This document shows, piece by piece, positions 34,501 through 59,498 of a DNA stretch of 64,000 nt (positions within the stretch are counted from its first letter, which is position 1; the number at the start of each line of letters is the position of its first letter). Below the pieces are notes generated by a model that saw nothing but the letters and a program-made list of their open reading frames with translations, did no database searches and had not been told where the DNA came from. Origin of the DNA: Desulfobacterales bacterium (lineage in GTDB: Bacteria > Desulfobacterota > Desulfobacteria > Desulfobacterales > UBA5852); the NCBI GenBank assembly GCA_049366795.1, contig JBMNCP010000062.1, positions 6,201-70,200 of the forward strand, written 5' to 3'. The translations under genes were made by a program, and so were the position numbers.

Positions 34501-35070
34501 TCATCGGTGATGGGATTGTCCGTCATCCGGAAGCTCGATGAATCGATGGGAAACCCCGCCGTTTCGTATTTCCAGGATGGCGACGGTGGGAAGCAGGCCA
34601 AATCTCGGAAAGCTTGCGCTGCCCGGATTGAGGTAGAATACACCGGAATCCCTCTCCGCTTCTGGCCGGTGGGTATGTCCGGAGATCACCACCTGAATCC
34701 CGGCCGCCAGCGGGTCCAGGTCGATCCGTGAACGGTCGTGGAGAATGAAGATCAGAACTCCTCCGACCTCGATCAGTTCAGCCGATTTCAGGGCGGCTGC
34801 CCATCCTCCGGTGTCCATGTTTCCTTTGACGGCCGCAACAGGCGCGATCCGCCTGACCGACTCGAGCAGCCCCGGCTTGTCGATGTCGCCGGCGTGGAGG
34901 ATAAGGTCCATGCCGTGAAACACCTCTGACACCCCCTGGGGAAGATAGCCGTGCGTGTCCGAGATGATACCGAGGCGCAACGTCTGCCTTCCATCGAAGG
35001 TGTTCAACCGGGTCCCTTCTTCGAGGATGCTTCGAAGGGTTTTGTCGCTTGGCGATGTTTCAGACGCCAT
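34501..35070 (-). CDS. YfcE/MJ0936-type metallophosphoesterase
   Basis: Motifs ISDTHG, AGDIDKP, GNMD and SGHTHRP. Confidence 0.85.
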   Translation of the reverse strand: MASETSPSDKTLRSILEEGTRLNTFDGRQTLRLGIISDTHGYLPQGVSEVFHGMDLILHAGDIDKPGLLESVRRIAPVAAVKGNMDTGGWAAALKSAELIEVGGVLIFILHDRSRIDLDPLAAGIQVVISGHTHRPEAERDSGVFYLNPGSASFPRFGLLPTVAILEIRNGGVSHRFIELPDDGQSHHR

Positions 35071-35082
35071 GACCCGCTTTTC

Positions 35083-35808
35083 CTATCGCAATCGTCTGCA
35101 TTTTTTCCGCTTTCCGGTTTTCCGCGGTGGTTTCCGGGGGATATGGAGCCTGCCTTTCAGGGTCTGCGTACTGTGGACGATTTTTGCGCGAATCGATTTC
35201 CGGTATTCCACGATGGCGCCGTAGACCAGGAAATAGGCAACCACCGACAGGGGAAGGCCGACCACGACACCCCCGACCAGGAGCGTCCAAAGAATCTCCG
35301 GGCCCAGCTTCATCAGGGCGATCAAGGTGTCGATATCGAATTCCACGGGCAGGGAATAGACGGTCGACCTGCCAAGTATCTTTGCCCCGGTGATGTAGGT
35401 GATACCATAAAGGATCGGTGCGGAGAGCGGATTGGATACCCATACGGAGATGCCGGCGGCCAGCTTGTTCCACTTGAACAGGGCGGCGAGAAAAATGGCA
35501 ATCGCCATGTGCAGTCCCATGAAGGGCGTAAAGCCGATCAAAACACCCAGGGCGAAACCGTAGGCGATCTCTTTCGGATTGCCCCGGATTTTTAGAAATC
35601 GCGCATATGCATTGCGAATCACCTTGAACCGGCCTTTAGGGTCGGCTGCTTCACATTCGTCATCCGGGGGAGGAAAGTCCGGTGCTCCACTTGGCGGTTC
35701 CGGCGGAGGACTTGGATCGAGGGGGATCTCGGGGGGATCCGGATAATTTTCGGACCTGACAGCGGGGCTCAATGCGTTTATAGAAGGAACAACAAGCTTC
35801 ACAATCAC
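35083..35808 (-). CDS. DUF2062 family membrane protein
   Basis: GNPKEIAYGFALGVLIGFTPFMGLHMAIAIFLAALFKWNKLAAG matches the DUF2062 core. GTG start. Pro-rich N-terminal extension. Confidence 0.75.
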   Translation of the reverse strand: MIVKLVVPSINALSPAVRSENYPDPPEIPLDPSPPPEPPSGAPDFPPPDDECEAADPKGRFKVIRNAYARFLKIRGNPKEIAYGFALGVLIGFTPFMGLHMAIAIFLAALFKWNKLAAGISVWVSNPLSAPILYGITYITGAKILGRSTVYSLPVEFDIDTLIALMKLGPEILWTLLVGGVVVGLPLSVVAYFLVYGAIVEYRKSIRAKIVHSTQTLKGRLHIPRKPPRKTGKRKKCRRLR

Positions 35809-38376: not shown

Positions 38377-39264
38377 ATGACCACCTATGCACTGATCGGA
38401 GCCGTCGAGCAGGGATTCCTCTACGGCATCATGGTCTTGGGCGTTTTCCTGACGTTCCGCGTCCTCGATTTTCCCGACCTCACGGTCGACGGGAGCCTCC
38501 CCCTTGGCGCCTCCGTATCGGCGGTCGCCATTTCCCATGGAATGAATCCCTATCTCTCACTGTTTCTCGCCATGGCGGCGGGGTTCCTCGCCGGTTCGGT
38601 GACGGCACTGCTGAACACCAAGCTCAAGATACTTCACCTGCTGGCCTCCATTCTCACGATGATTGCGTTGTACTCGATCAACATCCGCATCATGGACGGC
38701 CCCAATCGATCCCTTCTGGGTGTCGACACAGTACTCGATGCCCTCGTGCCTCTCGGTATTCCCGGGTACCTGGCGGCACCCGCGCTGTTCGGGGTCATTG
38801 CGCTGCTCGTGACCGCCTGCATGATCGGGTTTCTGAATACGGAATTGGGGCTCGCACTGTTGGCAACCGGTGACAATCCCAGGATGATCACCAGCCAGGG
38901 CGTCAACACCCACGGAACCATTCTCCTCGGCGTCGGCCTGTCCAACGCGCTGGTCGCGCTTTCCGGGGCCCTGGTGGCGCAGAACCAGGGCGCATCGGAT
39001 GTCAACATGGGTGTCGGAACCATCATCGCGGGTCTGGCCTCGGTAATCGTCGGTGAAACCCTTTGCGGCAAAGGGGGGATTGCGCGCGCCTGCCTGGCGG
39101 CACTGCTGGGTTCCCTGGTCTATCGGATCGCCATCGCCCTTGCACTGAGCTTCAAATGGGGGCGCTTCTCCTTTACGCCCAGCGACCTGAATCTCATAAC
39201 GGCGGTTCTGGTCGTCTCTGCCCTGACGGTGCCGAAAATCAAGGCCAGACTGAGTCGATCATGA
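38377..39264 (+). CDS. ABC transporter permease
   Basis: 295-aa polytopic membrane protein immediately downstream of the binding protein. The N-terminus GAVEQGFLYGIMVLGVFLTFRVLDFPDLTVDGS is typical of the partner permease. Confidence 0.8.
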   Translation: MTTYALIGAVEQGFLYGIMVLGVFLTFRVLDFPDLTVDGSLPLGASVSAVAISHGMNPYLSLFLAMAAGFLAGSVTALLNTKLKILHLLASILTMIALYSINIRIMDGPNRSLLGVDTVLDALVPLGIPGYLAAPALFGVIALLVTACMIGFLNTELGLALLATGDNPRMITSQGVNTHGTILLGVGLSNALVALSGALVAQNQGASDVNMGVGTIIAGLASVIVGETLCGKGGIARACLAALLGSLVYRIAIALALSFKWGRFSFTPSDLNLITAVLVVSALTVPKIKARLSRS

Positions 39265-40058
39265 TCGTCGCCGAGCACCTGAGAAAGATATTCAACCGCG
39301 GCGGCGTCAACGAAGCCACAGCCCTGGACGATCTCTCCATTCACGTCGAGAAGGGAGAATTCGTGACGATCATCGGCTCCAACGGAGCCGGAAAGTCGAC
39401 CCTTCTCAACTGCCTGGCCGGCACCTATCCGGTGGAAGGGGGAACGATCCGGCTCGATGGCCGTGACGTCACTTCATGGCCGGAGTATCGCCGTGCGAGG
39501 TATCTGGGGCGCGTCTTCCAGGATCCGCTGGTCGGCACCAGCGCTTCCCTCACGATCGAGCAGAATCTGGCGCTGGCAGTCAAGAGAGGCCGGAGAAGAG
39601 GGTTGCGCATCGGCGTCAGAAACGCCCACCGGGATCTGTTCCGGGCGCAGCTTTCGGTCCTGGGGCTGGGGCTCGAAGATCGCTTGAAGCTGAGCGTTGG
39701 CCTGCTTTCCGGAGGTCAGCGCCAGGCGCTCACCATGGTGATGGCAACGCTCATCCGCCCCAAGCTGCTCCTGCTGGACGAGCACACGGCCGCCCTGGAC
39801 CCGAAAACGGCGCGCCAGATCCTCGAACTGACCCGGGAAATCATCGATGGCCGCCGATTGACGGCCCTCATGGTCACGCACAACATGCACCACGCCCTCG
39901 ACCTGGGGAACCGTTTGATCATGCTCCACAGGGGGAGAATCATTCTGGACATCCGCGGGGCCGAAAAAGCGAATACCTCCGTCGACGATCTGCTCGAAAG
40001 ATTTTACTCGCAGCAGGGAGAATCGTTCGCGACCGACCGGGGGTTGCTTTCCGGATAG
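39261..40058 (+). CDS. ABC transporter ATP-binding protein
   Basis: Walker A GSNGAGKST, signature LSGGQRQAL, Walker B LLLDEHTAALDP. ATGA overlap with the permease gene. Confidence 0.9.
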   Translation: MIVAEHLRKIFNRGGVNEATALDDLSIHVEKGEFVTIIGSNGAGKSTLLNCLAGTYPVEGGTIRLDGRDVTSWPEYRRARYLGRVFQDPLVGTSASLTIEQNLALAVKRGRRRGLRIGVRNAHRDLFRAQLSVLGLGLEDRLKLSVGLLSGGQRQALTMVMATLIRPKLLLLDEHTAALDPKTARQILELTREIIDGRRLTALMVTHNMHHALDLGNRLIMLHRGRIILDIRGAEKANTSVDDLLERFYSQQGESFATDRGLLSG

Positions 40059-40215
40059 TTAAGCTAGTTAGGATAGTTATGTTAGTTGAGATAGTTATGT
40101 TAGTTGAGATAGTTATGTTAGTTAAGATAGTTAAGTTAGTTAAGTTAGTTTAGATAGTTGAGTTAGTTTAGATAGTTGAGTTAGTTTAGATAGTTTAGAT
40201 AGTTTGGTTAGTTTG
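40054..40215. repeat. Tandem array E: 18 consecutive 9-bp units G(A/T/C)TAGTTNN
   Basis: Read directly: GATAGTTAA GCTAGTTAG GATAGTTAT GTTAGTTGA ... GATAGTTTG GTTAGTTTG. Contains three tandem 18-bp GATAGTTATGTTAGTT(G/A)A copies; the third differs at one base. The first unit contains the TAG stop of the ABC ATPase gene. Confidence 0.95.
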
Positions 40216-40272
40216 GTCCTTTTCACTGGACAAATCCTCGACCCGATCCCGATGGGGATTGATTCTCCCTGG

Positions 40273-40292
40273 CGAAACGATTCCGTTGGCGT
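40273..40292. repeat. Dispersed intergenic repeat, copy 2 (20-nt identical core)
   Basis: CGAAACGATTCCGTTGGCGT is identical to 14339-14358. It lies about 60 nt after array E. Confidence 0.85.
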
Positions 40293-40348
40293 CGGTGGTT
40301 CCTCCCGTCACAAGCGCGTGCGGTTCGGAAATCAGACTCCTTCCAACC

Positions 40349-41722
40349 TCAATTCTTCAGGCTGTGAATCGGCGCGGGGATTCGTCCGCCGTGCTGCATG
40401 AATGCGTTTGCGGCGGAACCGTTTCGCACCGGGATGATCGTTGCCTCCCCCAGCAGGCCGCCGAAAGAGGCCTGGTCGCCCGCGGCCTTGCCGGGGACGG
40501 GGATCAGCCGCGCGGCGGTGGTCTTGCAATTGATGACGCCGATTGCCATCTCATCGGCGATGATGGCGGCCAGGGTTTCCGCCGAGGTGTCGCCCGGAAG
40601 CGCGATCATGTCCAGGCCCACTGAGCACACGCTGGTCAGGGCTTCGAGTTTCTCCAGGCTGAGATAGCCCCGGGCGGCCGCGTCGGCGATATTGAGATCC
40701 TCGCTGACCGGAATGAAGGCGCCGCTCAGCCCGCCCACGTGCGAGCTGGCGAAGGCCCCGCCTTTTTTCACCGCGTCGTTCAGCATGGCCAGCACGGCCG
40801 TGCTGCCCGGAACGCCGATGCGTTCGAGCCCCAGGCTCTGAAAAATCTCCCCGACGCTGTCCCCGATGTTGGGCGTGGGGGCAAGGCTCAAGTCCACGGC
40901 GCCGAACTCGATGCCCAGAGAATCGGCCACCTCGCGGCCGATCAGTTCTCCGACCCGCGTGACCCGGCATGCCGTTTTCTTGATGAGTTCGGAAATCTCC
41001 CCCAGGTCCATGCCGGGCTTCATCTCGAGCGCCCGGTCGATGGCCTTTTTGACCACGCCGGGCCCGCTAACGCCGACATTGATGACCGCATCGGGTTCCC
41101 CTATGCCGAGATAGGCACCCGCCATGAAGGGAATGTCCGGGGGAATGTTGGCAAAAACGCACAGCTTGGCGCAGGCGATGCCGTCGCGATCGGCCGTGAG
41201 CGCCGCCGACTCCTTGAGAATGCTGCCCATCATCAACACGGCATCCATGTTGATGCCGGCCCGGGTGGAGGCGACGTTGACCGAGGCGCAGACCCGATCG
41301 GTCTCCGCCAGTGCCGTGGGCATCGCCTCGAGAAGTGCCCGGTCCCCCTTCGTGAATCCCTTCTCCACCAAAGCGGAGTAGCCTCCGATGAAATCCACGC
41401 TCACCGATTCGGCCGCCTCGTCGAGCGTGCGGGCAACGGCCACCATTTCCTCAGCGCCCTGGTTTCCCGCGAAAACGGCCACCGGACTGACTGAGATTCG
41501 CTTGTTGACCACCGGGACGCCGTACTTGTCGCCGATGCGGTTGCACACCGGCACCAGGCGGCGGGAGAGGGTGCGGATCTTTTCCTTGATGTTGGCCCGG
41601 AGGCGGGCGGGGTTCTCGCTGGCGCAGTCCATCAGGCTGATGCCCAGCGTTACGGTTCTCAGATCGAGATGCTCGCTTTGGACCATCTCCAGGGTGGAGA
41701 GAATTTCATTTTGTGTCAGCAT
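40349..41722 (-). CDS. UPF0210 / DUF711 family protein
   Basis: 457 aa. MLTQNEILSTLEMVQSEHLDLRTVTLGISLMDC and the overall length match the UPF0210 family, from recollection. Confidence 0.75.
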   Translation of the reverse strand: MLTQNEILSTLEMVQSEHLDLRTVTLGISLMDCASENPARLRANIKEKIRTLSRRLVPVCNRIGDKYGVPVVNKRISVSPVAVFAGNQGAEEMVAVARTLDEAAESVSVDFIGGYSALVEKGFTKGDRALLEAMPTALAETDRVCASVNVASTRAGINMDAVLMMGSILKESAALTADRDGIACAKLCVFANIPPDIPFMAGAYLGIGEPDAVINVGVSGPGVVKKAIDRALEMKPGMDLGEISELIKKTACRVTRVGELIGREVADSLGIEFGAVDLSLAPTPNIGDSVGEIFQSLGLERIGVPGSTAVLAMLNDAVKKGGAFASSHVGGLSGAFIPVSEDLNIADAAARGYLSLEKLEALTSVCSVGLDMIALPGDTSAETLAAIIADEMAIGVINCKTTAARLIPVPGKAAGDQASFGGLLGEATIIPVRNGSAANAFMQHGGRIPAPIHSLKN

Positions 41723-41789
41723 GGATCGTCACCATCTACGACGGGGTTGAGGAGTGAAAACGCGTTGCCGGCATTCATGGAGGGTAGGC

Positions 41790-42344
41790 TCAGATACGGT
41801 TCAACACCTTGAAGATCTCCCGGTGTTGAATACTGATCTTCAGCCTGAGTTTTTCGGATCGACTTTTCAGATCCGCAAAAAGGGCATCGTGATCCGCCCG
41901 GCGTGGAATATCCACTTCGTAAATCATGATGTTGGCCGTGGGATCGTCTCCACCCTTGAATAGCGCTTGAAGATTGGTGATGTTGACCCCGTGATGGGCG
42001 AGAACGGCGCTGATTTCCGCCACCAGACCCTTCCGGTCGGGGCCGCGGGTGGTGATGACGAAGGGATCGGCCTCCGGCGCGGAGGAGGGGGCTTCCAGCG
42101 CCGCCATCGGTTGAACGTGCACCTGAAGCCCCATGGAGGAAAGCCGTTCCGCGAGGGCATCTTCGATCGTCGAAGGCGCCAGGCGGTCCGGTATGGCCGC
42201 AATGAAGATCCCGGCAAAACAGGACTGCAAGGTCGTCTGACTCACGTTCTCGATATTGCTTTCATGCTCGAGGAGGACGCGGGAGACGGCGGCGATGATG
42301 CCCGGGCGGTCCTGGCCCAGTACGGAGATGATGATCTTGCTCAT
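41790..42344 (-). CDS. Tandem ACT-domain protein (glycine-cleavage-regulator-like)
   Basis: Two ACT-type repeats: IIISVLGQDRPGIIAAVSRVL and FVITTRGPDRKGLVAEISAVLAHHGVNI. Confidence 0.75.
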   Translation of the reverse strand: MSKIIISVLGQDRPGIIAAVSRVLLEHESNIENVSQTTLQSCFAGIFIAAIPDRLAPSTIEDALAERLSSMGLQVHVQPMAALEAPSSAPEADPFVITTRGPDRKGLVAEISAVLAHHGVNITNLQALFKGGDDPTANIMIYEVDIPRRADHDALFADLKSRSEKLRLKISIQHREIFKVLNRI

Positions 42345-43369
42345 GGATTCGGTCCGGTATGCGGTCTGAGTATGCCGCGCCCGGCCTCGGTAATCCGGCT
42401 GACGCCCGTCAATACCATGGCTGAGAGCAGTTCCGACTTGATCTGGTCGATGTAGGCGTGGACGCCTTCCTTGAGCCCGCCCATGACAGCCACGGAGAAC
42501 GGGCGGCCGATCATGACCGCATCGGCCCCGAGGGCGATCATTTTCAGGACATCCGCCCCCGAGCGGACACCGCCGTCGGCCAGGATCGCCACCTGGCCCT
42601 TGACGGCGTCTGCAATCTCCGGCAGCACTTCCGCGGAGCCGGGCGTGTGGTCCAACACCCGGCCCCCGTGGTTGGAGACCACAATGGCCGCAGCTCCCGC
42701 ATCGACGGCAAGCTTCGCCTGGTCCACGGTCATGATGCCCTTGAGGATGAAGCGGGCGGACACCCGGCGAATGATCCCGGCGAGTTTCTCGACAGGCTTG
42801 GGCGTTACCGGCCGTCCCATGAGTTTCAAGGTGATGAGTCCGGCGGCATCGATGTCCATTCCGATGACGTCCGCTCCGGTTTCGAGCGCCTTCTCCAATT
42901 TCGGGAAGAGTTCGTCATCCTCCCAGGGTTTGATGAACGGAATTCCCTTTCCGTCGACGGATCGGATGGCGTCAAAGCCTGCTTCGTGAATGAAGGGAGG
43001 GACGCCGTCGCCGGTGCAGCCGACGATGCCTTTCTCGTGGCACCCCTGAAGCTTGGCGGTGATGTAATCCACTTCGGATACCTTGCCGCCCATGTTGAAC
43101 GAGACCCCGCCGATGGGCGCAGCCATCACCGGCAGGTCCAGGTCCATTCCCAGCAGTTCGACGCGGGTGTCAGGTGCGTCGACGCCGTGAATCAGGCGCA
43201 TGTTGAATCGCCAGCCTGCGAGCGCATCAAGATTGGCGCGGAAGGAGGCGCCGGTTCCGATTCCGCCCATCCCCGGCACTTCACCCGCGCAGACACGCCC
43301 GTTGCAAACCGGGCAGACCCTGCAGAAACCCTGCATCCGTTCTCTCGCTTTCGCCTTGACCGCCTTCAT
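42341..43369 (-). CDS. FMN-dependent alpha-hydroxy-acid dehydrogenase/oxidase family protein with an N-terminal Cys cluster
   Basis: TIM-barrel FMN motifs (AAIVVSNHGGRVLD, ILADGGVRSGADVLKMIALGADAVMIGR). N-terminal CRVCPVCNGRVC. Preferred start MKAVKAK (ATG 43369). Overlaps the ACT gene start. Confidence 0.8.
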   Translation of the reverse strand: MKAVKAKARERMQGFCRVCPVCNGRVCAGEVPGMGGIGTGASFRANLDALAGWRFNMRLIHGVDAPDTRVELLGMDLDLPVMAAPIGGVSFNMGGKVSEVDYITAKLQGCHEKGIVGCTGDGVPPFIHEAGFDAIRSVDGKGIPFIKPWEDDELFPKLEKALETGADVIGMDIDAAGLITLKLMGRPVTPKPVEKLAGIIRRVSARFILKGIMTVDQAKLAVDAGAAAIVVSNHGGRVLDHTPGSAEVLPEIADAVKGQVAILADGGVRSGADVLKMIALGADAVMIGRPFSVAVMGGLKEGVHAYIDQIKSELLSAMVLTGVSRITEAGRGILRPHTGPNP

Positions 43370-43557
43370 GCATTTCCTTTCCGTTGGTTGTCTCCGTTGG
43401 GAGCCTTGTGGTATGAGGCCATCGTTGGAGATAATCACTCCCGATTGGGGGAAAGTTGAGCCGGTAGGTATCGTTTAGAAGGTGGATACTACCCACGCGC
43501 ATGCCGATGGGCGCTGACTGTCTTACTTATTCAAAAGTCCCAACGACCCCAACGATC

Positions 43558-43680
43558 TTAACCATTTTAACTATCCTAACTAACTTAACTAACCTAACTA
43601 TCTTAACTAACTTAACTATCCTAACTAACTTAACTATCCTAACTAACTTAACTATCTTAACTAACTAAACTATCTTAACC
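43558..43680. repeat. Tandem array F: ~13 units of 9-bp NNAACTA(T/A)C, the reverse complement of array E units
   Basis: TTAACTATC CTAACTAAC TTAACTAAC CTAACTATC ... TAAACTATC TTAACC. TTAACTATC is the exact reverse complement of the GATAGTTAA unit in array E. Confidence 0.95.
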
Positions 43681-43724
43681 GTACTACCCGCTCCGACCGC
43701 CATACAAACCAGAAGGACCCGTAA

Positions 43725-44564
43725 ATGTCAAAGCAAAACATGATGCAGATCGTGCGGGACCACAAAACCATGTTCGTGGTCATCGGGGTCTGCCTTCTGT
43801 TGATCGAAATCGAGATTTTTGCCATCGCCGCGATGAAATCAGGCCGGAAGTCCACCATCCAGGTACTCACCCCGGAAGGCTCCGTGATCTACGAGGCGGA
43901 CGGCTCCAATCTGAGCCAGTTCGACAAATACTATTTCGAGCAGAATTTCGGCCCTCTCGACCGGTACGAACTCCGACTCGCAACGCGCGAGGTGCCGTTC
44001 CCGTTCCGGGCATGGTTCGTGGCGGCGTTCGGAATTCCGATCGGCGCCATGCTGCTGTTCGCCTTCCTGGTGAAGGCCTTCCTTGCCGTCTTCTACGGCG
44101 AGTCGCCGGAAACACCTCCGAGGGCCGATTCGCCGGATGACCGGAACCGCCGGGAGAGCACCCGCCTCGAGCGTCTCCTGCTGCGGCTGAGCCGCTACAA
44201 CATCTTCATCATCGGCTTCCTCATTCTGGTCGGCATTTTCGCCTACTGGGTGGTACCCAACCTCATCACCCACCTCGGACGGGTCGGCATCGAGACGCTG
44301 AGCCGCTTTAAATGGGGATTTCTCGGTCTCGGCGCCGTTGTGCTCGGGCTGCTGGTCTGGATCATCTACCTGCGGTTTCTCCTCGCCAGGAAATCACTGG
44401 AAAGCCAGACCGAGTTGGAGCGCTACCGGCTCGAGCTCGAATATCGGTCCGGGAACCGGGATGAAAAACTTCTGACGGACGGCAGCCCGGACCGTCCCCT
44501 TGTCGAATGGACCCCGCCGGTTGGCCGTCCGGATCCCGAATCCCGGAAGGATCGCCCGATATGA
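43725..44564 (+). CDS. Hypothetical membrane protein
   Basis: 279-aa ORF with about 4 predicted hydrophobic helices. ATGA-coupled to the downstream DHH-CBS gene. Confidence 0.6.
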   Translation: MSKQNMMQIVRDHKTMFVVIGVCLLLIEIEIFAIAAMKSGRKSTIQVLTPEGSVIYEADGSNLSQFDKYYFEQNFGPLDRYELRLATREVPFPFRAWFVAAFGIPIGAMLLFAFLVKAFLAVFYGESPETPPRADSPDDRNRRESTRLERLLLRLSRYNIFIIGFLILVGIFAYWVVPNLITHLGRVGIETLSRFKWGFLGLGAVVLGLLVWIIYLRFLLARKSLESQTELERYRLELEYRSGNRDEKLLTDGSPDRPLVEWTPPVGRPDPESRKDRPI

Positions 44565-51256: not shown

Positions 51257-54200
51257 TTAATCCGCGTTCGCGGCGTCCGCAACCAGGCGAACACCGAAAT
51301 TCAGCAGCTTATAAATGAAAAGGCCGTCCACTTTCAAGGCGCCGTCGATCCGGAATTCGGATCCGTTGTCCCCATCCTCCTCTTCGCAGGAGGCTTCGAC
51401 GACGATGGTCTTGTTGGAAGGCAATATCTGTCCGCGATACTGCCAGGTATGCGGGCTTCCGACGCGAAGCTCCAGCCTGTGGCCCGGATACCGGGTGCGC
51501 CAGATGTCGAGGGCGGCGCACCGGGCCATCTGGATCAGGGATTCGATGCCAAGGGAGCCCGGGCAAACAGGATCCTGGTGAAAATGAGCCTTGAAGTACC
51601 ATGCGGCGGGGTCGACATCCTTGAACCCTCGCATCTCCAGAACCCTTCCGCCGGCGGTCTGCCGGGGAGCCACCTGGATCCGGTCGATCATGCGAATGGC
51701 CCGAGCCGGAAGGCCGGGCGGGAAATCCGGTTCGTCCACGCGGTCTTCCGGCAAGAAAGGCGGCAGGTCCGTCAGGGTTTCGACCGGAACTGCGGTGGAT
51801 TCGGCCCCGACGCCGGCATCGAATGTCTCGCGGATGCCTCTTTGTTCGTCCAGGGCCTCCGCGGTAAAGAACCCGAAGCCGGTCCTGCCGGTGTAGACGG
51901 GGCTGCCTTCCCGCGACACCTCGAATTCGAACTGTTCGATGATCATATCCCCCGCGGACGAGGCGCGCAGGAGGCGGCAGCGTGTCGTCAGCGTGAAGGC
52001 GCCCCGGCGGACATTTTCATGAATCGTGGCGGTTCCGTCCAGATTGCGGAAGTGAAGGTCCTGTTCGCTTTTCAGCGCCGAACCCATGTAGGCTGCCAGA
52101 AATCCGCAGGACTGAAGCGCGATTTCCATGAGAACGCAAAGCGGCATCACGTCCGAACGGTTGGCTTGAAAATACCAGTGCCAGGGCTTGACGTCGAATT
52201 CCGTCTGGAGCCATCCGCCGGGCTCGAGCACCCAGGGTTCGGGCTCGGCAACGGTCACCCGGTCGATAAAGGAGTAGGGCGGCGCGGGAAGCCTGGCGAT
52301 GAACCGTCCGTCGTCGAACGGCCGGTAGCGGCTGCCGAAGGCGTCCGAGGGCCTTCCGGAGGCGAAGGCGAGGATGTGGCGGCGTTCGAAAACCGCCGGG
52401 ACTGTCCTGCCCGGCACTGGACGGTGTTCCGAACGCTTCCTCCAGAACTGCTTTAAGTCAGATTCCCCAACATTCGATAATTTAAGCGACATCCCCTTGA
52501 ATCGGACGATCCGCCGTCCGTCTGCGATCATCATGGCGTCGGCGATCGCGAAGGGTTCGGGATTCGATCCGATGTCGGTGATCTCGATTTCGTAAACCAC
52601 TTTTTTCGTTTCGGGCGTGACCGGCCCCCTGCATTTGAGAACCGCGGGCGCGGTCGTCAGCGGCTCGAAGCGAGCCTCCTCGTTCGGGCTGACCCATCCC
52701 ATCCCCTGCAACAGGACGCGGAGGGCGTGGGCGCAGCACTCATACATCAACGTGCCGGGCATGACCTGGTCATCCACGAAATGGCAGGTGAGAAACCAGT
52801 CGTCCGGCCGGATGTCCGCCTCGGCGCGGATGGCCCCCAGCCCGCCCGTGCCGCCGAAAGGATCCAGGTCGAGAACCCGGTGGATCAGACGCATCCGTCC
52901 GGCTGGCAGGCGCTGGCCTTCCGGGAGTCTGATGCCCGCGAAATCCGCTCCGAATGCCTTCTCGAGATCGCCGTCCCTCAGCGCATCGAGAGCCTCGTCG
53001 TCAATCCGTCGGGAGCGAACGGCGACCAGCGGCTCCGCCCCGCCCGCCGGAACCGGTGTTTCTTCGGGTTCGCCTGGCAGAATTCCGCCCGAGTTGCGGA
53101 CCTCTTCCTCGGTGAAGAAGCCGGCGCAGCCGTTTCGCATCGTGATCAACGGTTGTCCGGCGATCGATCCGTCGAATTCGAAAAAGAACATCCAGGTATC
53201 GCCCTGTTTGATGAATTTTTCGATCCGGATGTCGTAGCGGATCGTTTCTCCGGGAAGCGGCAACCCCCGGTGAAAGGTGACCGTGGCGTCGAGAAGCCGG
53301 TAGGTGCGCAGGCCCCTGACGTGGAGATCGATCCCAAGATAGGCGCACAAAAAGAGGTCGGCCTGGCCCGCCTCCACCGAAATGCAGACCGGCGCCCGGC
53401 CGCCGTCCAGGTACCACTGGTCCGGCAGGACATCGTGTTCCGTGACAATCCTTCCCGGTCCCAGCTGCCCTTTCCGGCCTTCGATCCGAAGGATCCGGTC
53501 CACCAGCATCAGGGGCTCGTCCGGCAGCCGGACCCGTACGCGATACCGGTCCACCTCCGCAAAATCGGGACCGAACAGGCGAGCAACGGATCCCACCGCG
53601 AACTCCATGCATTGCCCGCGGGTGAAGACAGGGGCGGGAATGCCGGAATGCGAAAATGCGGGAAAGCGGGGATGCGGGGGCGTGGAAAGCGCGGTTTCCG
53701 GGGTATCCGGGACGTTGGGCGCTGGAACGGCTGAAGACGTTTTGCCGCCCGGTTTCGTTCCCGGGGGCGACGCCGCCAGCAGGCGGGATTTGAGTTCAAC
53801 CGCATCGGCGTACGACCGGATCCAGTCCTGAGATAGTGAAAGGAATCGCTCATGGGCCGCGCTGGTCTGCTCCGAGCTTTCGACGAGGTCCTGGACCAGC
53901 CGGTCGATCGATGGCTGGGCGAACGTCGGGTACGGGGTCGGCGGACCGGAGACGGACGCCGGTACCCGGTAAGAGGCCGCTTCCGGGGCGGGGGAGGGTG
54001 CATCGACGGCCAGGGCCGGAAGCGCCGGCCAGTCGATCGACTTTCCGCCGTTGACCACCCGGATCGATGCGGACGGATCGACCGAAGCCGTTTCCACGGC
54101 CGCCGGCCGGACGGTCAGAAGCGACCACTCCACCGGGACGCGGTGCACGGCCAGCGTTGCGGCGATCCTGGCGATGGCGGCAAAGTCGCCTTGGTGCCGA

Positions 54201-57200
54201 TGGGAGGCGGAAAGGGCCAGGTGAGGTCTGCCGTCGAGAATCTGCTGGATCATGCGCGTGCAGGAGGCCCCCGGCCCGGTTTCGATAAAGATGCGGACCC
54301 CGTCCCGGTAGACCCGCTCGACCAGCTTCGGGAAATCGAATCCGTCGAGCCCCTGCCGGAGGATGGACTCCGCCATGGCGTCGGACTCGATCCGGATCGG
54401 GGCGGCGTCCGCGCAGCCATAGAGCGTGATGCCGTTCAACTCCCGGACCGGCAGCCGGTGCAGGTCCCGGTAGGCATCGGCGGAAGGGGAAAGCGCGTCG
54501 CAGTGAACGCTGATCACCCCGTCCAGCGGTACGGCGTTGGCGCCGAGGCGCCGGACCAGCGCCTCCACCTGGGGGCGGTCCCCGCCGATGACGGATGCCT
54601 CGGGTGTGTTGACGATGAGCAGGCGAACGCGGGAAAATTCCTCCAGGGCCGATTGGATGGCGTCGGCCGGGCGGTCGACCACGACCGCGTGCCATTCGAA
54701 CGTTTCGGTTTCGGATAGCCCCCAGGCTTTGCGGGCCGAACGGCAGGCGCCGTAGAGCGCATGGGTGAACAGGTCCGTCTTCTGAATCCGCTTCAGCATC
54801 TCGTCGGGATGGGGCCATGCCCCGGTTGCGAAATAGGCGGCGGATTCGCCCAGGCTGTAGCCGAAAGCGGCGCGGGGCCTCAGCCCCAGGCGTTCGAGAA
54901 GGCGCGTCACCACCAGGCCGTGGGTGACGTGACCGCAAAAAAGATCCCTGGGATCCCGGGACAACCCGGCCATGGCCGCGGACTCCCAGCCGGGGGGCCA
55001 CTCGCTGCGGCACGGCAGAAGCCGTCCGGGGCGGGCTCGGTCCCGAAGCCTTCCCGTCTCCCGGTCCATTTCATCGAGAATGCCGGGCCAGAACAGTCCG
55101 ATCTCCCGCCCCATTCCCGGAAACTGGTTTCCCGATCCGGGATAGACCAGCGCCACTGCGGACGACGCGCCCAACGGGGCAGAGGCGTAGCAGGCGGCCG
55201 AGGTCGGCGTGAACCGGATTTCCGTTCCGTTCCGGATGGCAGTCCTGGCGGCTGCGATGGACCGTTTCAGCTCCCGGGGGTCGGAGCCCTCGACCGCGAC
55301 GGCGAGGCGAGCTCCGAAATCAGGGGGGTGTTCCCGAAGCCAGGCGGCCGCGGCGTGCCCGATCGGCCCGTCGAACTGCGAAGCCTCCCGTTCGAGCCGG
55401 TCCAGCCGGCTCAGGAGCGCATCCGGATCGGCCCCGTCGACCAGAAACATCCCCAGGGGCGGAAGGGACGCGGCATGGAGGCCCGCGGTCACGGGTACGG
55501 CGGCATCGGACGGTGCTTCCCGCAGCACCGCGGCCATGGCGACCCCATCCGGGGTCATGGCGCTGACGCAGGCACGTCGCGGGCCGTCTTCGCTATTCCG
55601 CAGCCAATAATGGGTGGCACGGGGAAGATGGAACCGCTCGGAATCCCACCCGGGCTCCTCGCCGACCGCGTATCCGGGAAGACCGGGGATCCGTCTCCGG
55701 TGGAGGCAAAGGGCGGTTTTCACGACGGCTGCCAGACCGGCGGCCGCCCCCGCGTGTCCGATCGCGGACTTGACGGAGCCGATCGCGCAGGGAAACGGGC
55801 GGGCCGGAAAGACGCGGTGGAATGCCTCCCTTTCCGCTCGGTCCTCCGGGGGAAACCCGCTGCCGTGGGATTCGACGTATTCGATTGCTTCCGGACCGAC
55901 CCCGGCGTCCCGGAATGCAAGCGCAATGGCGTCGGAACAAGCGGTCGAAGCAGGCGCCTCCGTGGGAGCGAATGCCCCGGAAACGGATCCCAGCCCATCC
56001 AGAACGGCGTAAATGCGGTCTCCGGAGGATGTGGCGTCGGATAGCCGCTTGAGCACCAGGGCGGCCGCACCTTCGCCGGGAAGACTGCCGTCGGCTTTCC
56101 GATCGAAGGGATGGACTGCCGGCCGGCCGGACCATCCTCGAATGGCGTCCGCCGCAGCCATTTCCCGAAGGTCGCCCGGGAGATCCACCGCTCCGACCAG
56201 GACCGCGTCGACCTCGTGTCTTTGAAGCGACCGGGCGCCGATTTCGAGCGCCTTCATCCCGGAGGCGGCTTCACACGAGAGAACGAAGCTCGGGGCGCCG
56301 AACCGGAAGGCCTTTGCAATCCGGCTCGCGATCAGGCTTCCCAGGGCGCCCAGCGTCCGCACATGGGTGAGGGGGGGAGAAATGCCGTCGGCCAGGCGTT
56401 TTGCGCCACCCGCCGCCTCGACGGATTCAGTCCGAAGTCCATGTTTTCCTTCGAACTCCCGCAACAGGCGCCGCAGGCTCCAGCGCAGCTGAAACTGGGT
56501 TTCCTCGAAATCGAAACCCATGCCGATGACCGCCCCCATCCGGGGGCGTGCCGGTTCATCGGCCATGCCGGCGTCGGACAGGGCTTCCATCGCCACTGCC
56601 AGCATGAGCAGATGCTGCGGCAGAATATCGGGAATCTCCCTGGGCGGAATCGGAAATCTTCCCAGGGGGATGTCCAGGCGATCCAGGTAGTTTCCTTTCG
56701 GTGGGGAGCGGCGGAACAGGAGGTCCTGAACGGTGCGGCATCCTTTCCATCGGCTGGCGGGCGCTGAACCGAACTCATGGGCTTCCTTGAAAACCGCCTC
56801 CTCGAAAGCCTTCAACGAACCATATCGACCGAAGGCGGCCGACATGCCGACAATCACGACCGGCTCCTCGGCAGGCGGCGCCGGTGCGGCGACCGGCACG
56901 GACGTTTTTCCGGGAAGCCATTCCTCGACCAGGAGGTGAGCGTTGATACCGCCGAAGCCGAAAGCGCTGACCGCCGCTCGCCGCGGTGTGGCGGAATCCC
57001 TTTGATGCCAAGGTTCGGCGACCGTCTGGACCCTGAAGGGACCGTTTTCCAGCGGGCTTCCAGGACGCGGGCGGTTGAAGTTCAATGACGGCGGGAGCGT
57101 TCGGTGTTTCAGGCCGAGCAGGATTTTGATCAGGCCCGCGATGCCGGCCGCGGTGAGCAGATGGCCGATCGTCGACTTGACCGAGCCGATGGCGCACTGA

Positions 57201-58261
57201 CCCGGCGACCATGACGCACCTTCCCACAGCGCCCCGAGACTTTTGAGCTCGACCGCATCCCCGACCAGTGTGCCGGCACCGTGGCATTCGACCAGGTCCA
57301 CCTGGTCAGGGGTCCATCCGGCATCGGCGTAGGCCGCCCGCATCGCCCGCAGCTGGCCCTCCATCTCAGGCGCGAGCAGGCTGCCCCGCATGTCGTTGGA
57401 GAGGCCCATGCCTCGGATGATGCCGAGGATCGGGTCGCCGTTCCGAACGGCGTCCTCCAGGCGCTTGAGGACGACGAGCCCGGCGCCTTCTCCCACCACC
57501 AGACCGTCGGCATCCGCATCGAACGGAGCGGCGCGTCCGGACGGTGAAAGGGCCTGAAGCTGACTGAAGCCGATCTGCGTATAAAGGCAGTCGGGTCGCG
57601 AAACCCCGCCTGCGATCATGGCGTCCGCCCGGCCGGAACGAAGGGCGTCGCAGGCGAATTTGATTCCGAAAAGGGATGAGGCGCAGGCCGCGTCGAGCGT
57701 AAAGCTTCCGGCGCGGTAGCCGAAGGCACGGGCCAGTAGGGCCGCCGGCAGCGCCGTCACCCTGGAGGCCATCGCTTCGAGCGGCGTGACGGGATTTCGG
57801 GAACCGGCGGGTGATTCCGGAAACCAGCGGCGTTCGAGTTCCTTTCCGAACAGCTTCCGGGACAGTGCCGACGCCGCATCCGTGGGAAGGGCGATGGCGG
57901 CCAAAACCACGCCGATCCGCCCTGGATCCACGCTGTCGAGCCTTCCGGACTCCGCGATCTCCCTGCCGCAGTGGAGCACCAAATGATAAAGGGGATCCAG
58001 GGCCAGAAGGTGCTCCGGCGGAAGGAAATAACCGGTCGGGTCGAAGTCGAAGTCGAGAATCAAACCGGCCCGGTTGGACACGGCCCGGTCCGGCTCGTTG
58101 CGGCTCGAAACGACCGACGCCGCCGGAGCGATCCATCGATCCTCAGGCACCGGCCCCGTGCAGTCGAGGCGATGGATCAGGTGGTCCCAGAACTCGTCCA
58201 GGGACCGGCTCCCCGGGAAAATCCCGGAAGCTTCGATGACGGCGATGGGATGGGAAGTCAT
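51257..58261 (-). CDS. PUFA-synthase-type megasynthase, PfaC/Pfa3-like: KS - CLF - AT - (FabA-like DH)x2, 2334 aa
   Basis: See the domain features below. No ACP, KR or ER segment is recognisable in this ORF. Confidence 0.88.
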   Translation of the reverse strand: MTSHPIAVIEASGIFPGSRSLDEFWDHLIHRLDCTGPVPEDRWIAPAASVVSSRNEPDRAVSNRAGLILDFDFDPTGYFLPPEHLLALDPLYHLVLHCGREIAESGRLDSVDPGRIGVVLAAIALPTDAASALSRKLFGKELERRWFPESPAGSRNPVTPLEAMASRVTALPAALLARAFGYRAGSFTLDAACASSLFGIKFACDALRSGRADAMIAGGVSRPDCLYTQIGFSQLQALSPSGRAAPFDADADGLVVGEGAGLVVLKRLEDAVRNGDPILGIIRGMGLSNDMRGSLLAPEMEGQLRAMRAAYADAGWTPDQVDLVECHGAGTLVGDAVELKSLGALWEGASWSPGQCAIGSVKSTIGHLLTAAGIAGLIKILLGLKHRTLPPSLNFNRPRPGSPLENGPFRVQTVAEPWHQRDSATPRRAAVSAFGFGGINAHLLVEEWLPGKTSVPVAAPAPPAEEPVVIVGMSAAFGRYGSLKAFEEAVFKEAHEFGSAPASRWKGCRTVQDLLFRRSPPKGNYLDRLDIPLGRFPIPPREIPDILPQHLLMLAVAMEALSDAGMADEPARPRMGAVIGMGFDFEETQFQLRWSLRRLLREFEGKHGLRTESVEAAGGAKRLADGISPPLTHVRTLGALGSLIASRIAKAFRFGAPSFVLSCEAASGMKALEIGARSLQRHEVDAVLVGAVDLPGDLREMAAADAIRGWSGRPAVHPFDRKADGSLPGEGAAALVLKRLSDATSSGDRIYAVLDGLGSVSGAFAPTEAPASTACSDAIALAFRDAGVGPEAIEYVESHGSGFPPEDRAEREAFHRVFPARPFPCAIGSVKSAIGHAGAAAGLAAVVKTALCLHRRRIPGLPGYAVGEEPGWDSERFHLPRATHYWLRNSEDGPRRACVSAMTPDGVAMAAVLREAPSDAAVPVTAGLHAASLPPLGMFLVDGADPDALLSRLDRLEREASQFDGPIGHAAAAWLREHPPDFGARLAVAVEGSDPRELKRSIAAARTAIRNGTEIRFTPTSAACYASAPLGASSAVALVYPGSGNQFPGMGREIGLFWPGILDEMDRETGRLRDRARPGRLLPCRSEWPPGWESAAMAGLSRDPRDLFCGHVTHGLVVTRLLERLGLRPRAAFGYSLGESAAYFATGAWPHPDEMLKRIQKTDLFTHALYGACRSARKAWGLSETETFEWHAVVVDRPADAIQSALEEFSRVRLLIVNTPEASVIGGDRPQVEALVRRLGANAVPLDGVISVHCDALSPSADAYRDLHRLPVRELNGITLYGCADAAPIRIESDAMAESILRQGLDGFDFPKLVERVYRDGVRIFIETGPGASCTRMIQQILDGRPHLALSASHRHQGDFAAIARIAATLAVHRVPVEWSLLTVRPAAVETASVDPSASIRVVNGGKSIDWPALPALAVDAPSPAPEAASYRVPASVSGPPTPYPTFAQPSIDRLVQDLVESSEQTSAAHERFLSLSQDWIRSYADAVELKSRLLAASPPGTKPGGKTSSAVPAPNVPDTPETALSTPPHPRFPAFSHSGIPAPVFTRGQCMEFAVGSVARLFGPDFAEVDRYRVRVRLPDEPLMLVDRILRIEGRKGQLGPGRIVTEHDVLPDQWYLDGGRAPVCISVEAGQADLFLCAYLGIDLHVRGLRTYRLLDATVTFHRGLPLPGETIRYDIRIEKFIKQGDTWMFFFEFDGSIAGQPLITMRNGCAGFFTEEEVRNSGGILPGEPEETPVPAGGAEPLVAVRSRRIDDEALDALRDGDLEKAFGADFAGIRLPEGQRLPAGRMRLIHRVLDLDPFGGTGGLGAIRAEADIRPDDWFLTCHFVDDQVMPGTLMYECCAHALRVLLQGMGWVSPNEEARFEPLTTAPAVLKCRGPVTPETKKVVYEIEITDIGSNPEPFAIADAMMIADGRRIVRFKGMSLKLSNVGESDLKQFWRKRSEHRPVPGRTVPAVFERRHILAFASGRPSDAFGSRYRPFDDGRFIARLPAPPYSFIDRVTVAEPEPWVLEPGGWLQTEFDVKPWHWYFQANRSDVMPLCVLMEIALQSCGFLAAYMGSALKSEQDLHFRNLDGTATIHENVRRGAFTLTTRCRLLRASSAGDMIIEQFEFEVSREGSPVYTGRTGFGFFTAEALDEQRGIRETFDAGVGAESTAVPVETLTDLPPFLPEDRVDEPDFPPGLPARAIRMIDRIQVAPRQTAGGRVLEMRGFKDVDPAAWYFKAHFHQDPVCPGSLGIESLIQMARCAALDIWRTRYPGHRLELRVGSPHTWQYRGQILPSNKTIVVEASCEEEDGDNGSEFRIDGALKVDGLFIYKLLNFGVRLVADAANAD
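51302..52504 (-). other. Megasynthase domain: dehydratase region 2 (pseudo-DH + FabA-like DH)
   Basis: PWHWYFQANRSDVMPLCVLMEIALQ segment, then AAWYFKAHFHQDPVCPGSLGIE (His2226, codon 51584-51586). Boundaries are approximate. Confidence 0.7.
52562..53659 (-). other. Megasynthase domain: dehydratase region 1 (pseudo-DH + FabA-like DH)
   Basis: TEHDVLPDQWYLDG segment, then FabA-type DWFLTCHFVDDQVMPGTLM (His1827, codon 52781-52783). Boundaries are approximate. Confidence 0.7.
54212..55144 (-). other. Megasynthase domain: acyltransferase
   Basis: VYPGSGNQFPGMG and the GxSxG motif AFGYSLGE (Ser1136, codon 54854-54856). Boundaries are approximate. Confidence 0.75.
55547..56815 (-). other. Megasynthase domain: chain-length-factor-like KS (active-site Cys replaced by Ala)
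   Basis: SFVLSCEAASG aligns to SFTLDAACASS, so the catalytic position (aa 665, codon 56267-56269) is Ala. His motifs ESHGSG and KSAIGH are retained. Boundaries are approximate. Confidence 0.7.
56852..58252 (-). other. Megasynthase domain: ketosynthase (active)
   Basis: DAACASS with Cys193 (codon 57683-57685). ECHGAGT and KSTIGH His motifs. GFGGINAHLLVEE end. Boundaries are approximate. Confidence 0.8.
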
Positions 58262-58399
58262 GAAAACAGTTGGCTCTGAGAATGACAGACCCCGGGCGCA
58301 GCATCCCGCACCCGGGTCAATATGATCGATCGGTGATTTTTATTCGTTCAGAAGCCTTCTTTCATACTCGAAATTCCCTGTCTCCGCAACCTTATAAAA

Positions 58400-58451
58400 G
58401 GCTAAAGGCGAAAGGCTAAAGGCGAAAGGGGAAAGGGCAAAGGGCAAAGGC
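58400..58451. repeat. Heptamer tandem array A (GGNNAAA x7)
   Basis: GGCTAAA GGCGAAA GGCTAAA GGCGAAA GGGGAAA GGGCAAA GGGCAAA GGC. Confidence 0.95.
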
Positions 58452-58649: not shown

Positions 58650-58713
58650 CAGTTCACGGATCAGGACAATCGGCACACGGTTCACATCCCACGGTTCACG
58701 GCTCACGAATCAC
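58650..58713. repeat. Degenerate ACGGTTC-type heptamer repeats (distal part of the left IR arm)
   Basis: CAGTTCACGG ... CACGGTTCACATCC CACGGTTCACGGCTCACGAATCAC. Confidence 0.8.
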
Positions 58714-58730
58714 TCTCCGCCTTCTCCCTT

Positions 58731-58829
58731 GATCTTTGATCTTTGATCTTTGATCTATTATTCCTCGAGCCTTTAGCCCTTTCACTTTGGCCTTTAGCCT
58801 TTCCCCTTTAGCCTTTTTGCTTTTCCCCC
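58731..58829. repeat. Heptamer tandem array B: (GATCTTT)x3.7 then CTTTNNC units. Left inverted-repeat arm.
   Basis: GATCTTT GATCTTT GATCTTT GATCT ATTATTC CTCGAGC CTTTAGC CCTTTCA CTTTGGC CTTTAGC CTTTCCC CTTTAGC CTTTTTG CTTTTCC. The reverse complement matches arrays A and C. Confidence 0.95.
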
Positions 58830-58907
58830 AACGCCTTGACTTTCCAAAACGGAAGATTTAAAAAATTCCTTTCCTCGCCAACAAGTTTCCCTGGAGGTGG
58901 AATCAAA

Positions 58908-59498
58908 ATGACGGATCCAAGGCAGTCCTCGGAGAGCGAAGACCAGTTGCGGGCCATGCTTGCACGGACCGGTTACTCGGCAAAAGCCATCGATTACTAC
59001 ATCCGGAAACCCCACATGGGTTCCATCGAAAACGCCGATCAGATTTCGGAAATGGTCGGCACCTGCGGCGATTCCATGACGGTGTTCCTCAAGGTGGACC
59101 AAGGTCGCATCGAGGACGTGAAATACCAGATTCTGGGCTGTGCCGGCTCTATTTCCGCGGCGATGGCGGCGGTCGATCTCGTGAAGGGGAAAACGGTCGA
59201 GGAAGCCCTTGCGGTCGATGACGGCGATGTGTTCAAGTCCCTTGAGGAGATTCCGGCAAAGAAGCACCACTGCATTCAGCTTTCCGTGAAGGCCCTGCAA
59301 AAGGCCATCAGGGCCTACCAGAAGTCCAAGGGCGGCCAAGCGCTGATCTCCGCCGAGGTGCCTGCGGGACCGCCGCTGGCGGCGGGCAAGGGCAACGGTG
59401 AGACCGCTTGCTGCAAGCCCTCCCCGGGCAAGGGGAGTTGCGGCGGGAACGGCGGGGGATGCTGCGGTCATTCGGGCGGCCCGAAAATCGGCAATTAG
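58908..59498 (+). CDS. NifU/IscU N-terminal-domain-like Fe-S scaffold protein with a Cys/Gly-rich C-terminal tail
   Basis: Three scaffold cysteines in GTCGDSM, LGCAGSIS and KHHCIQLS. ATG 58908 is preceded by GGAGGTGG. Tail GETACCKPSPGKGSCGGNGGGCCGHSGG. Confidence 0.8.
   Translation: MTDPRQSSESEDQLRAMLARTGYSAKAIDYYIRKPHMGSIENADQISEMVGTCGDSMTVFLKVDQGRIEDVKYQILGCAGSISAAMAAVDLVKGKTVEEALAVDDGDVFKSLEEIPAKKHHCIQLSVKALQKAIRAYQKSKGGQALISAEVPAGPPLAAGKGNGETACCKPSPGKGSCGGNGGGCCGHSGGPKIGN

Follow-up and report, generated by a model that had tools for sequence, protein, structure and literature searches.

The stretch of DNA analysed in this study (the window; 64 kb of one metagenome-assembled Desulfobacterales genome) contains two arrays of a 9-bp tandem repeat, designated E and F, which lie on opposite strands and face each other across a three-gene operon. 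The operon comprises genes for an FMN-dependent dehydrogenase (FMN_dh), a protein with two ACT domains and a DUF711 protein, all on the minus strand. Its flanks are on the plus strand: to the left lies an ABC transporter operon, and to the right a conserved gene for a protein of 279 amino acids (aa) together with a DHH-CBS gene. A preliminary description of this DNA, made from its letters, had recognised that the arrays enclose these three minus-strand genes, and domain searches confirmed the gene identities. Coordinates of the features are listed in Table 1.

Arrays E and F and the operon between them

Array E consists of 18 units, including three 18-mers of the form GATAGTTATGTTAGTT(G/A)A. 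Both the number of units and the 18-mers, reported earlier, are evident in the sequence and agree with the output of Tandem Repeats Finder, which placed the array at 40054-40213 (period 9, 16.8 copies; period 18, 8.9 copies, score 180). Array F had been described as about 13 units of the reverse complement. It is indeed the reverse complement of E, but the count was refined to 12 canonical units and three decayed ones (AATGGTTAA, GATCGTTGG, GGTCGTTGG), which push the array out to about 43540; Tandem Repeats Finder reported it at 43557-43679 (period 9, 12.6 copies; period 18, 6.8 copies, score 183). Scores ranged from 162 to 183 for 12.6-16.8 copies of the 9-mer, a length well beyond what chance would give, and the 7-mer and 8-mer arrays described below were detected as well. 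The units of E and F lie back to back without spacers, so the arrays are not CRISPR, as had been noted before.

The GC content of E and F is 25-27%, against a window mean of 60%, and the two arrays rank second and third among the 120-bp stretches of the window by AT-richness. The most AT-rich stretch (15731-15900, 24% GC) is non-repetitive and is situated upstream of a small gene of the cold-shock type (15914-16144). Strand asymmetry in the arrays is extreme: C occurs once in the 162 nt of E, and G is never present in 124 nt of F (plus strand, 43557-43680). Analysis of the 30 canonical units revealed a constant G.TAGTT core (180 of 180 bases), with variation confined to positions 2, 8 and 9. 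The constant core may reflect constraint, or just the young age of the arrays.

Comparison of E with F by repeat search and blastn gave inverted matches of 111-154 nt with 77-83% identity and E-values down to 5e-33, in line with the earlier account of an AT-rich inverted pair 3.3 kb apart in a GC-rich region. The longest perfect match is 26 bp. The order of the units is also common to both arrays. Position 2 of units 1-12 follows the pattern A,(C/T),A,T,A,T,A,T,A,T,T,A in E and in reverse-complemented F; from their outer ends both arrays alternate GAT... and GTT... units, and both lose the alternation at units 10-11. This shared break indicates that E and F are inverted duplicates over at least 110 bp and not two independent expansions. 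E and F are colinear, and one is the inverted duplicate of the other.

Divergence of the canonical units after copying is found only at unit positions 8-9 and is block-wise within each array, units 3-8 ending in AT GA AT GA AT AA in E and in AA AG AA AG AA AA in F, while the inner edge of F has decayed. Edge decay and block-wise homogenisation are typical of tandem-array evolution, and the block-wise 18-mer repeats within E and within F are indirect signs of slippage. Since divergence at the variable positions is block-wise, complementarity between E and F is not being maintained at those positions.

No match at the gathering threshold of Rfam was found anywhere in the window, and a tRNA scan of the window found nothing. 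As for promoter-like sites, E contains just two, both of them weak matches, and F contains none. Two structural suggestions of the preliminary description were not supported. The 9-bp period had been thought to align sites on one face of the DNA; at 10.5 bp per turn it gives a rotation of about 309 degrees per unit, so that the sites would spiral round the helix rather than share one face. Curved DNA had also been suggested, and a wedge model predicted no intrinsic curvature for the arrays, which fell at the 18th-85th percentile of the window.

The arrays are closely fitted to their surroundings. The stop codon TAG of the ABC ATPase gene (40056-40058) lies within the first unit of E, as had been seen before; the array itself starts 2 nt before the stop codon and not, as had been stated, inside it. 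Array F sits between the conserved upstream blocks of two diverging genes, FMN_dh and the 279-aa gene. On the operon side, the conserved motif TCATACCACAAGG lies about 125 nt inside array F, which places F upstream of the conserved control region; on the other side, F stops about 13-19 nt short of the conserved block 43699-43724. The blocks that are conserved upstream of the operon genes, outside of which the arrays lie, are read here as putative promoters. The arrays are intergenic and non-coding and fill DNA without conserved signal. Domain scans found no transposase or recombinase among 40 window proteins, which agrees with the earlier remark that no transposase is nearby; likewise, no replication-initiator or partition gene was found in the window, and no candidate array-binding protein is encoded nearby.

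Six orthologous loci were used for comparison of the DUF711 operon (L001, L002, L003, L004, L132 and L133; DUF711 identity 79-88%). The ABC transporter genes are opposite DUF711 at all six, with the relative orientation found in the window. The far side of the operon was reached in L001, L002 and L004, and all three have a conserved gene of the 275-aa class there, with a DHH-CBS gene beyond it in L001 and L004. In the relatives the intergenic gap next to the ABC genes measures 7-74 bp and the opposite one 120-298 bp; tandem arrays are absent from the gaps of all six loci. Orthologous proteins end at the same residue without an array, and identities to L001 are even over the operon and its flanks (69-88%). 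Since the relatives match the window in gene content, order and orientation and lack arrays, the cassette is ancestral and fixed and did not arrive with the arrays, and nothing points to inversion. A mobile cassette would be expected to be present in some relatives and absent from others, or to occupy differing sites; genes, order and orientation were found to be alike, and no target-site duplications or shared termini were seen in the aligned flanks.

The preliminary description had listed inversion of the cassette among several possible roles, and had itself named array-free relatives with the same genes in the same orientation as an observation that would refute its interpretation. This is the arrangement found, and it counts against any cassette-linked role. 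According to the inversion reading, homologous recombination between the inverted arrays would flip the operon and give two expression states. Inverted repeats of 110-150 bp with a 26-bp perfect match are compatible with it, 26 bp being near the minimum length for RecA-dependent recombination. The arms, however, are just about 80% identical, no site-specific recombinase was found in the window, and the orientation of the operon equals that of the six array-free relatives. Furthermore, because the conserved upstream block of the operon lies inside the arrays, a flip would move the operon and its likely promoter together and would not switch it off by itself. We consider a recombination switch of this kind very unlikely.

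Other repeat arrays in the window and in other genomes

A second system, a compound inverted repeat of 7-mers, surrounds a NifU gene and a 203-aa gene at 58.4-60.3 kb. Its left arm (A2) and right arm (A3) are 74-82% identical and present one ordered series, in which (AAAGGCN)n is followed by a linker, by (AGATCAA)n, by another linker and by GTGAGCCG. A further array (A1), which is more diverged, lies to the left of A2. Tandem Repeats Finder arrays at 58729-58756 and 58768-58816 form part of A2. The 7-mer arrays, unlike E and F, are not AT-rich. As at the first locus, the unit enclosed runs against its neighbours, which here are on the minus strand. A3 begins 2 nt past the stop codon of the 203-aa gene, and A2 ends just upstream of the -35-like hexamer of a promoter-like element, TTGAC(T/A)-17 nt-T(T)A..A, that is conserved in two relatives (L121 and L125). 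Because conserved promoter-like elements lie inside the arrays at both loci, the 5' arrays are probably absent from the operons' own mRNAs. A strong terminator-like hairpin (59532-59562; 12-bp stem, T-rich tail) lies between the NifU gene and the 203-aa gene, and these two genes may be separate transcription units.

Three related loci (L121, L123 and L125) carry a giant polyketide synthase-like gene, the 203-aa gene and a DAC gene in the order and orientation of the window. NifU is also present in L121 and L125 and is missing from L123. No arrays were found at the three loci, and the gaps are short. Replacement of FMN_dh and NifU by foreign genes was considered and ruled out by their identities to relatives (79% and 71-77%, respectively), which are like those of neighbouring genes. 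Both bracketed operons are thus ancestral, with vertical inheritance and a fixed orientation, and the arrays are recent additions to the adjoining gaps. Recent gain follows from the six DUF711 loci and the three NifU loci, in which gene order and orientation are unchanged, gaps are short and arrays are absent. This suggests that the arrays of the window arose in this Desulfobacterales lineage after its split from the sequenced relatives.

In the window, the 203-aa gene and the DAC gene are separated by 260 bp (60234-60493), a gap that is nearly filled by A3 and by further arrays at 60360-60467, namely (TAATCCT)x4 and a 14/22-bp CTACTTTCT.CTCG array, which are without an inverted partner in the window. 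The content of this gap varies among the relatives: an ADP-ribosylglycohydrolase gene in L125 (6737-7507), a cold-shock gene in L123 (6687-6932) and 46 bp in L121. An ADP-ribosylglycohydrolase gene of the window (14391-15286, beside the 8-mer pair described below) was considered as a moved copy from the NifU locus and rejected, as it is 25% identical to that of L125. The region 51257-58261 is an open reading frame of 2334 aa whose orthologues in the relatives carry ketosynthase and FabA domains, as in polyunsaturated fatty acid or polyketide synthases. Within this giant synthase reading frame an 8-bp tandem repeat, GCGGGAAT, occurs at 53634-53678 (5.6 copies, 75% matches). Another large synthase gene (62561-63994), which has KR and PS-DH domains, runs past the end of the window, and the pair of large synthase genes is kept in the relatives around the NifU and DAC genes.

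The third system is an 8-mer array with an inverted copy, separated by an AT-rich loop, and the pair folds as a long hairpin. Comparison of the three systems revealed that each array family (E/F, 7-mer and 8-mer) is confined to one neighbourhood of the window and exists as nearby inverted copies only, which are 68 nt (8-mer), 312 nt (A1/A2), 1.4 kb (A2/A3) and 3.3 kb (E/F) apart. No arrays were found at the remaining intergenic regions, including those around the opposite-strand blocks 16279-20201 and 34501-35808. Two candidate rules for the placement of the arrays were tried and rejected. The bracketed operons are not both head-on to replication, since GC skew is positive throughout the window and would make one head-on and the other co-directional; nor is there a common polarity of Rho-loading (rut-like) sequence, the G-poor strand pointing outward for E/F and inward for A2/A3.

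An exact 20-mer, CGAAACGATTCCGTTGGCGT, occurs at 14339-14358 and at 40273-40292 (0.02 expected by chance). A few tens of bases separate either copy from a tandem array to its left, and both stand in a loosely similar 65-nt stretch; the 20-mer was not found in the relatives' loci compared or in viral contigs. CGTTGG-like repeats are also present at the inner end of array F.

Table 1. Positions of the repeat arrays, genes and conserved elements in the window.
Feature	Position	Strand	Remarks
Array E	40054-40215	+	18 tandem 9-mers G[A/T/C]TAGTTNN, back to back
Array F	43540-43686	-	on the minus strand, an array of E type; 12 canonical units (43557-43680) and three decayed inner units
ABC transporter ATPase gene	39261-40058	+	start set by homology to a 265-aa orthologue; C-terminal end at the same residue as in L001
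DUF711 (UPF0210) gene	40349-41722	-	last gene of the enclosed operon; 79-88% identity to orthologues in relatives
Gene for protein with two ACT domains	41790-42344	-	middle of the enclosed operon
FMN_dh gene	42341-43369	-	reading frame extends to 43438; start at 43369 from alignment of orthologues; 79% identity to L001
Conserved upstream motif TCATACCACAAGG	43404-43416	-	35-47 nt before the FMN_dh ATG; common to relatives
Conserved 279-aa gene	43725-44564	+	no Pfam match; about 26 nt before its start (43699-43724) kept in relatives
Array A1, (AAAGGCN)x8	58397-58451	+	third, more diverged copy of the 7-mer element
Left arm A2	58696-58823	-	minus-strand order (AAAGGCN)n - CTCGAGGAATA - (AGATCAA)4 - GGGAGAAGGCGGAGAGTGA - GTGAGCCG...
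Promoter-like TTGACT-17 nt-TAAAAA for NifU	58836-58864	+	between A2 and the NifU ATG; kept in L121 and L125
NifU_N-domain protein gene	58908-59498	+	71-77% identity to orthologues in relatives
Conserved 203-aa gene	59622-60233	+	no Pfam match
Right arm A3	60236-60331	+	(AAAGGCN)6 - CTCGAGGGAT - (AGATCAA)2 - GCAGAAAGCCGAGAGTGA - CCGTGAGCCG
8-mer (CGAGGGNT) array and inverted copy	14157-14294		arms 14157-14191 and 14260-14294; 68-nt AT-rich loop

A total of 185,579 genomes were searched with a generic 9-mer array pattern. The search revealed at least 116 unrelated 9-bp microsatellites from many phyla, in coding and non-coding DNA, none of them from the source genome. An inverted partner was present at just four of the 116 loci, and the only kilobase-distant partner (L059) consists of two threonine-rich coding repeats on opposite strands; thus, in this rough control, a non-coding inverted partner kilobases away was found at none of the 116 loci. 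With the specific 18-mer pattern, six unrelated low-GC matches were found in metagenome contigs and none in viral contigs, and no copy of the array family was found among them. Inverted 9-mer array pairs about 200 bp apart or palindromic occur in two unrelated metagenome-assembled genomes, one of Bacteroidota and one of Ramlibacter (L019, 394-776; L027, 1737-1925), and compound arrays of several short units side by side occur in L016 (an Ignavibacteriaceae metagenome-assembled genome) and L088. Such short-unit arrays are widespread and poorly described.

The small inverted pairs bring to mind mobile DNA of the foldback type or of the type of miniature inverted-repeat transposable elements, in which case the arrays would be arms belonging to a non-autonomous element with terminal inverted repeats made up of short tandem units, of which separate copies would have inserted to the left and to the right of the operon. 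The 8-mer pair with its 68-nt loop and A1/A2 with its 312-nt loop do resemble foldback elements of small size, the foldback elements of Drosophila are defined by arms composed of short tandem repeats, and the exact 20-mer stands beside arrays at 14339 and at 40273. Set against these likenesses, the families are local only and not dispersed through the 64 kb, the enclosed genes are ancestral at the site, target-site duplications and shared termini were not seen in the aligned flanks, the 40 window proteins scanned include no transposase, and copies were not found in viral or metagenome collections. An origin of the arrays as mobile DNA is distinctly unlikely. Taking both loci together, the cassette, inversion and mobility readings are not supported by the sequences compared.

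With a single metagenome-assembled genome as the source, the arrays might be suspected to be an artefact of assembly. They are, however, imperfect and internally structured, their flanks are colinear with the relatives on both sides, the reading frame of the ABC ATPase ends correctly within the array, and three independent systems have one pattern. An artefact is highly improbable.

Origin and possible roles of the arrays

Our preferred reading, to which we assign a probability of about 0.45, is that the arrays are lineage-specific long simple-sequence repeats that grew by slippage, were copied locally in inverted orientation and have no dedicated function. Short-unit arrays would grow and homogenise by replication slippage. 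One array would then have been copied, inverted, into the nearest DNA tolerant of insertion, which for a tightly packed operon would be its other end. The copying step would consist in template switching from one arm of a replication fork to the other, an event that would be short-range and inherently inverting, and like copying would have taken place at least twice more in the window. The arrays are limited to spare DNA, either flush with a stop codon or between the conserved upstream blocks of diverging genes. AT-rich arrays may, as spacers, incidentally alter promoter coupling. On this reading, the arrays do not belong to any mobile or invertible cassette.

Several results carry this reading. 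Duplicative origin is indicated by the position-2 pattern of E and F and by the common order of four different sub-arrays and linkers in the arms at the NifU locus. Local inverted copying is indicated by the irregularity shared by E and F, by the strictly local distribution of the families and by the fact that four of four copy events were inverted. Further support comes from the decayed edge units and block-wise homogenisation, from recent gain in a vertically inherited region, from placement in spare DNA and from the published precedents compared below. The lack of any transposase or recombinase, Rfam match, predicted curvature and viral or metagenome copies leaves no sign of mobility or of a specific partner. 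From these observations we infer a template-switch origin and near-neutrality.

Other results weigh against this reading. The G.TAGTT core is constant in 30 of 30 units, for which the rough chance under uniform mutation is 0.0005 to 0.04, and this hints at constraint. Both operon-spanning pairs enclose a complete transcription unit opposite to both of its neighbours, an arrangement that looks designed. All four copy events that the reading calls for are inverted, and the control, rough as it is, found no distant non-coding inverted partner at any of the 116 loci with 9-bp arrays in other genomes. Lastly, the reading builds on 64 kb of one metagenome-assembled genome and on template switching, which is itself inferred.

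A rival reading is that the arrays bind protein and act as boundaries. A protein would coat the core (G.TAGTT every 9 bp, or AAAGGC every 7 bp), bridge the inverted arrays and thereby loop out the operon that runs counter to its surroundings, insulating it topologically or in transcription. A core that stays constant while positions 2, 8 and 9 vary freely would suit such a protein, as would the placement of the arrays at gene ends and directly upstream of the operons' conserved upstream blocks, so that both pairs enclose the whole opposite-strand unit including that block. Nucleoid-associated proteins prefer AT-rich DNA, and the high rank of E and F in AT-richness would be in keeping with binding of this type. 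The 7-mer arrays, however, are not AT-rich, and the unit differs from system to system (9-mer, 7-mers and 8-mer), so that several proteins or a readout of shape only would be required. In addition, the neighbourhood encodes no candidate binding protein, intrinsic curvature is not predicted, the relatives run the same operons without arrays, and the opposite-strand blocks at 16279-20201 and 34501-35808 lack arrays in the window itself. Protein-binding boundary arrays are unlikely.

The same geometry could also act in RNA. Transcripts reading through from the flanking same-strand genes would cross the operon in antisense and contain both arrays, which would pair with each other; RNase III would cut the stem, remove the antisense RNA and separate the flanking messages. 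The predicted duplexes are strong, with energies of about -150 kcal/mol when E pairs with F and of -141 to -149 kcal/mol when A2 pairs with A3, and two of the arms are predicted to be nearly unstructured alone (plus-strand RNA of F, -1.0 kcal/mol; minus-strand RNA of E, -0.9 kcal/mol). The 26-bp perfect match between E and F, the bracketing of the whole opposite-strand unit with its conserved upstream block, which the model requires, and the prediction of no intrinsic terminator between the flanking genes and the arrays are all in agreement with such stems. The spacings of 1.4 and 3.3 kb also resemble those generally known for rRNA processing stems. By contrast, the operons' own mRNAs should be without the 5' array, and the strong terminator-like hairpin at 59532-59562 splits NifU from the 203-aa gene. 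Rho normally terminates long untranslated antisense RNA and would be expected to stop an antisense transcript several kilobases in length. Moreover, the variable positions of E and F are without co-variation that would preserve pairing. Processing stems of this kind are quite unlikely.

More generally, inverted simple-repeat arrays that bracket a whole unit might be functional boundary elements with a private sequence for each pair, their arms being paired or bridged, as DNA by a coating protein or as RNA in read-through transcripts that RNase III cuts. We hold this to be doubtful; if true, it would describe a cheap and quickly evolvable fence round an opposite-strand gene block, and a new kind of element in bacteria. 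If the arrays are by-products only, as in the preferred reading of slippage and local inverted copying, the locus records the spread of simple-sequence arrays by local inverted copying into the next free gap, and shows arrays tightly bounded by stop codons and by conserved blocks upstream of genes. Either way, inverted repeats round genes are no proof of mobility unless synteny is checked in relatives. The operon-bracketing geometry, which occurs twice in 64 kb and was unseen in the control sample, merits genome-wide attention.

Comparison with known systems

In invertible switches (hin, fim and shufflons) inverted repeats flank a segment, and iterons and parC-type centromeres consist of tandem short sites. 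The arrays of the window resemble the former in flanking a segment with inverted repeats and differ in that the window contains no recombinase and the orientation is fixed in the relatives. They resemble the latter in their tandem sites with a conserved core (G.TAGTT, 30 of 30), whereas the locus is chromosomal and syntenic, with no replication-initiator or partition gene nearby. The processing stems of 16S and 23S rRNA are formed by complementary sequences 1.5-3 kb apart and are cut by RNase III. The arms in the window likewise lie on either side of a unit and would be able to pair within one transcript; unlike the rRNA stems, which are conserved and lie within a known transcript, their pairing positions show no co-variation and the relatives are without arrays.

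Foldback (FB) transposons of Drosophila have long inverted arms of short tandem repeats and can flank unrelated DNA, including genes. They are probably the nearest structural analogue of the window arrays. Unlike FB transposons, which are eukaryotic and dispersed, the copies in the window are local, the enclosed genes are ancestral at the site and no target duplications were seen, so that the arrays differ from this class in mobility.

Two published groups of bacterial repeats come closer. The preliminary description had not recognised the arrays as a known repeat family. This is partly right: short-unit arrays (PMC4679880) and inverted pairs (PMC4692102) have both been published, while array pairs that span whole operons are not described in either of these papers. 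In Xanthomonas, arrays of the heptamer GGGAATC occur as 70-75 inverted pairs per genome (Rehm 2015, PMC4692102). The members of a pair are close together, form G-quadruplexes and can form stem-loops or cruciforms, and the status of an array as pair or single is usually kept between species (PMC4692102). As in Xanthomonas, arrays of one unit lie on opposite strands in the window and face each other. In contrast, the units are not G-tracts, and genes intervene between E and F (3.3 kb) and between A2 and A3 (1.4 kb). The close-pair format of Xanthomonas is matched by the 8-mer pair alone, with its 68-nt loop. Membership in this group is therefore partial, given the gene-containing spans of the two larger pairs.

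The second group consists of long simple-sequence repeats (Mrazek 2007, in the summary given in PMC4679880). Intergenic tandem arrays of 5-11 nt units occur sporadically over lineages (MacGregor 2015, PMC4679880). They are often compound, sometimes overlap gene ends, which is possible because the units contain stop codons, and are absent from close relatives that have a like neighbourhood and shorter gaps (PMC4679880). Among them, the TAACTGA heptamer repeats are mostly found just upstream of start codons (PMC4679880). The arrays of the window differ from the TAACTGA repeats in their unit, in not being mostly at start codons and in that every family has nearby inverted copies. Cyanobacterial short tandemly repeated repetitive (STRR) heptamers are related heptamer arrays. 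In two of the window pairs the arrays span a whole operon, which distinguishes them from long simple-sequence repeats. Like the latter, the arrays of the window are head-to-tail repeats of 7-9 nt units, intergenic, lineage-specific and compound, and they possess the defining features of long simple-sequence repeats.

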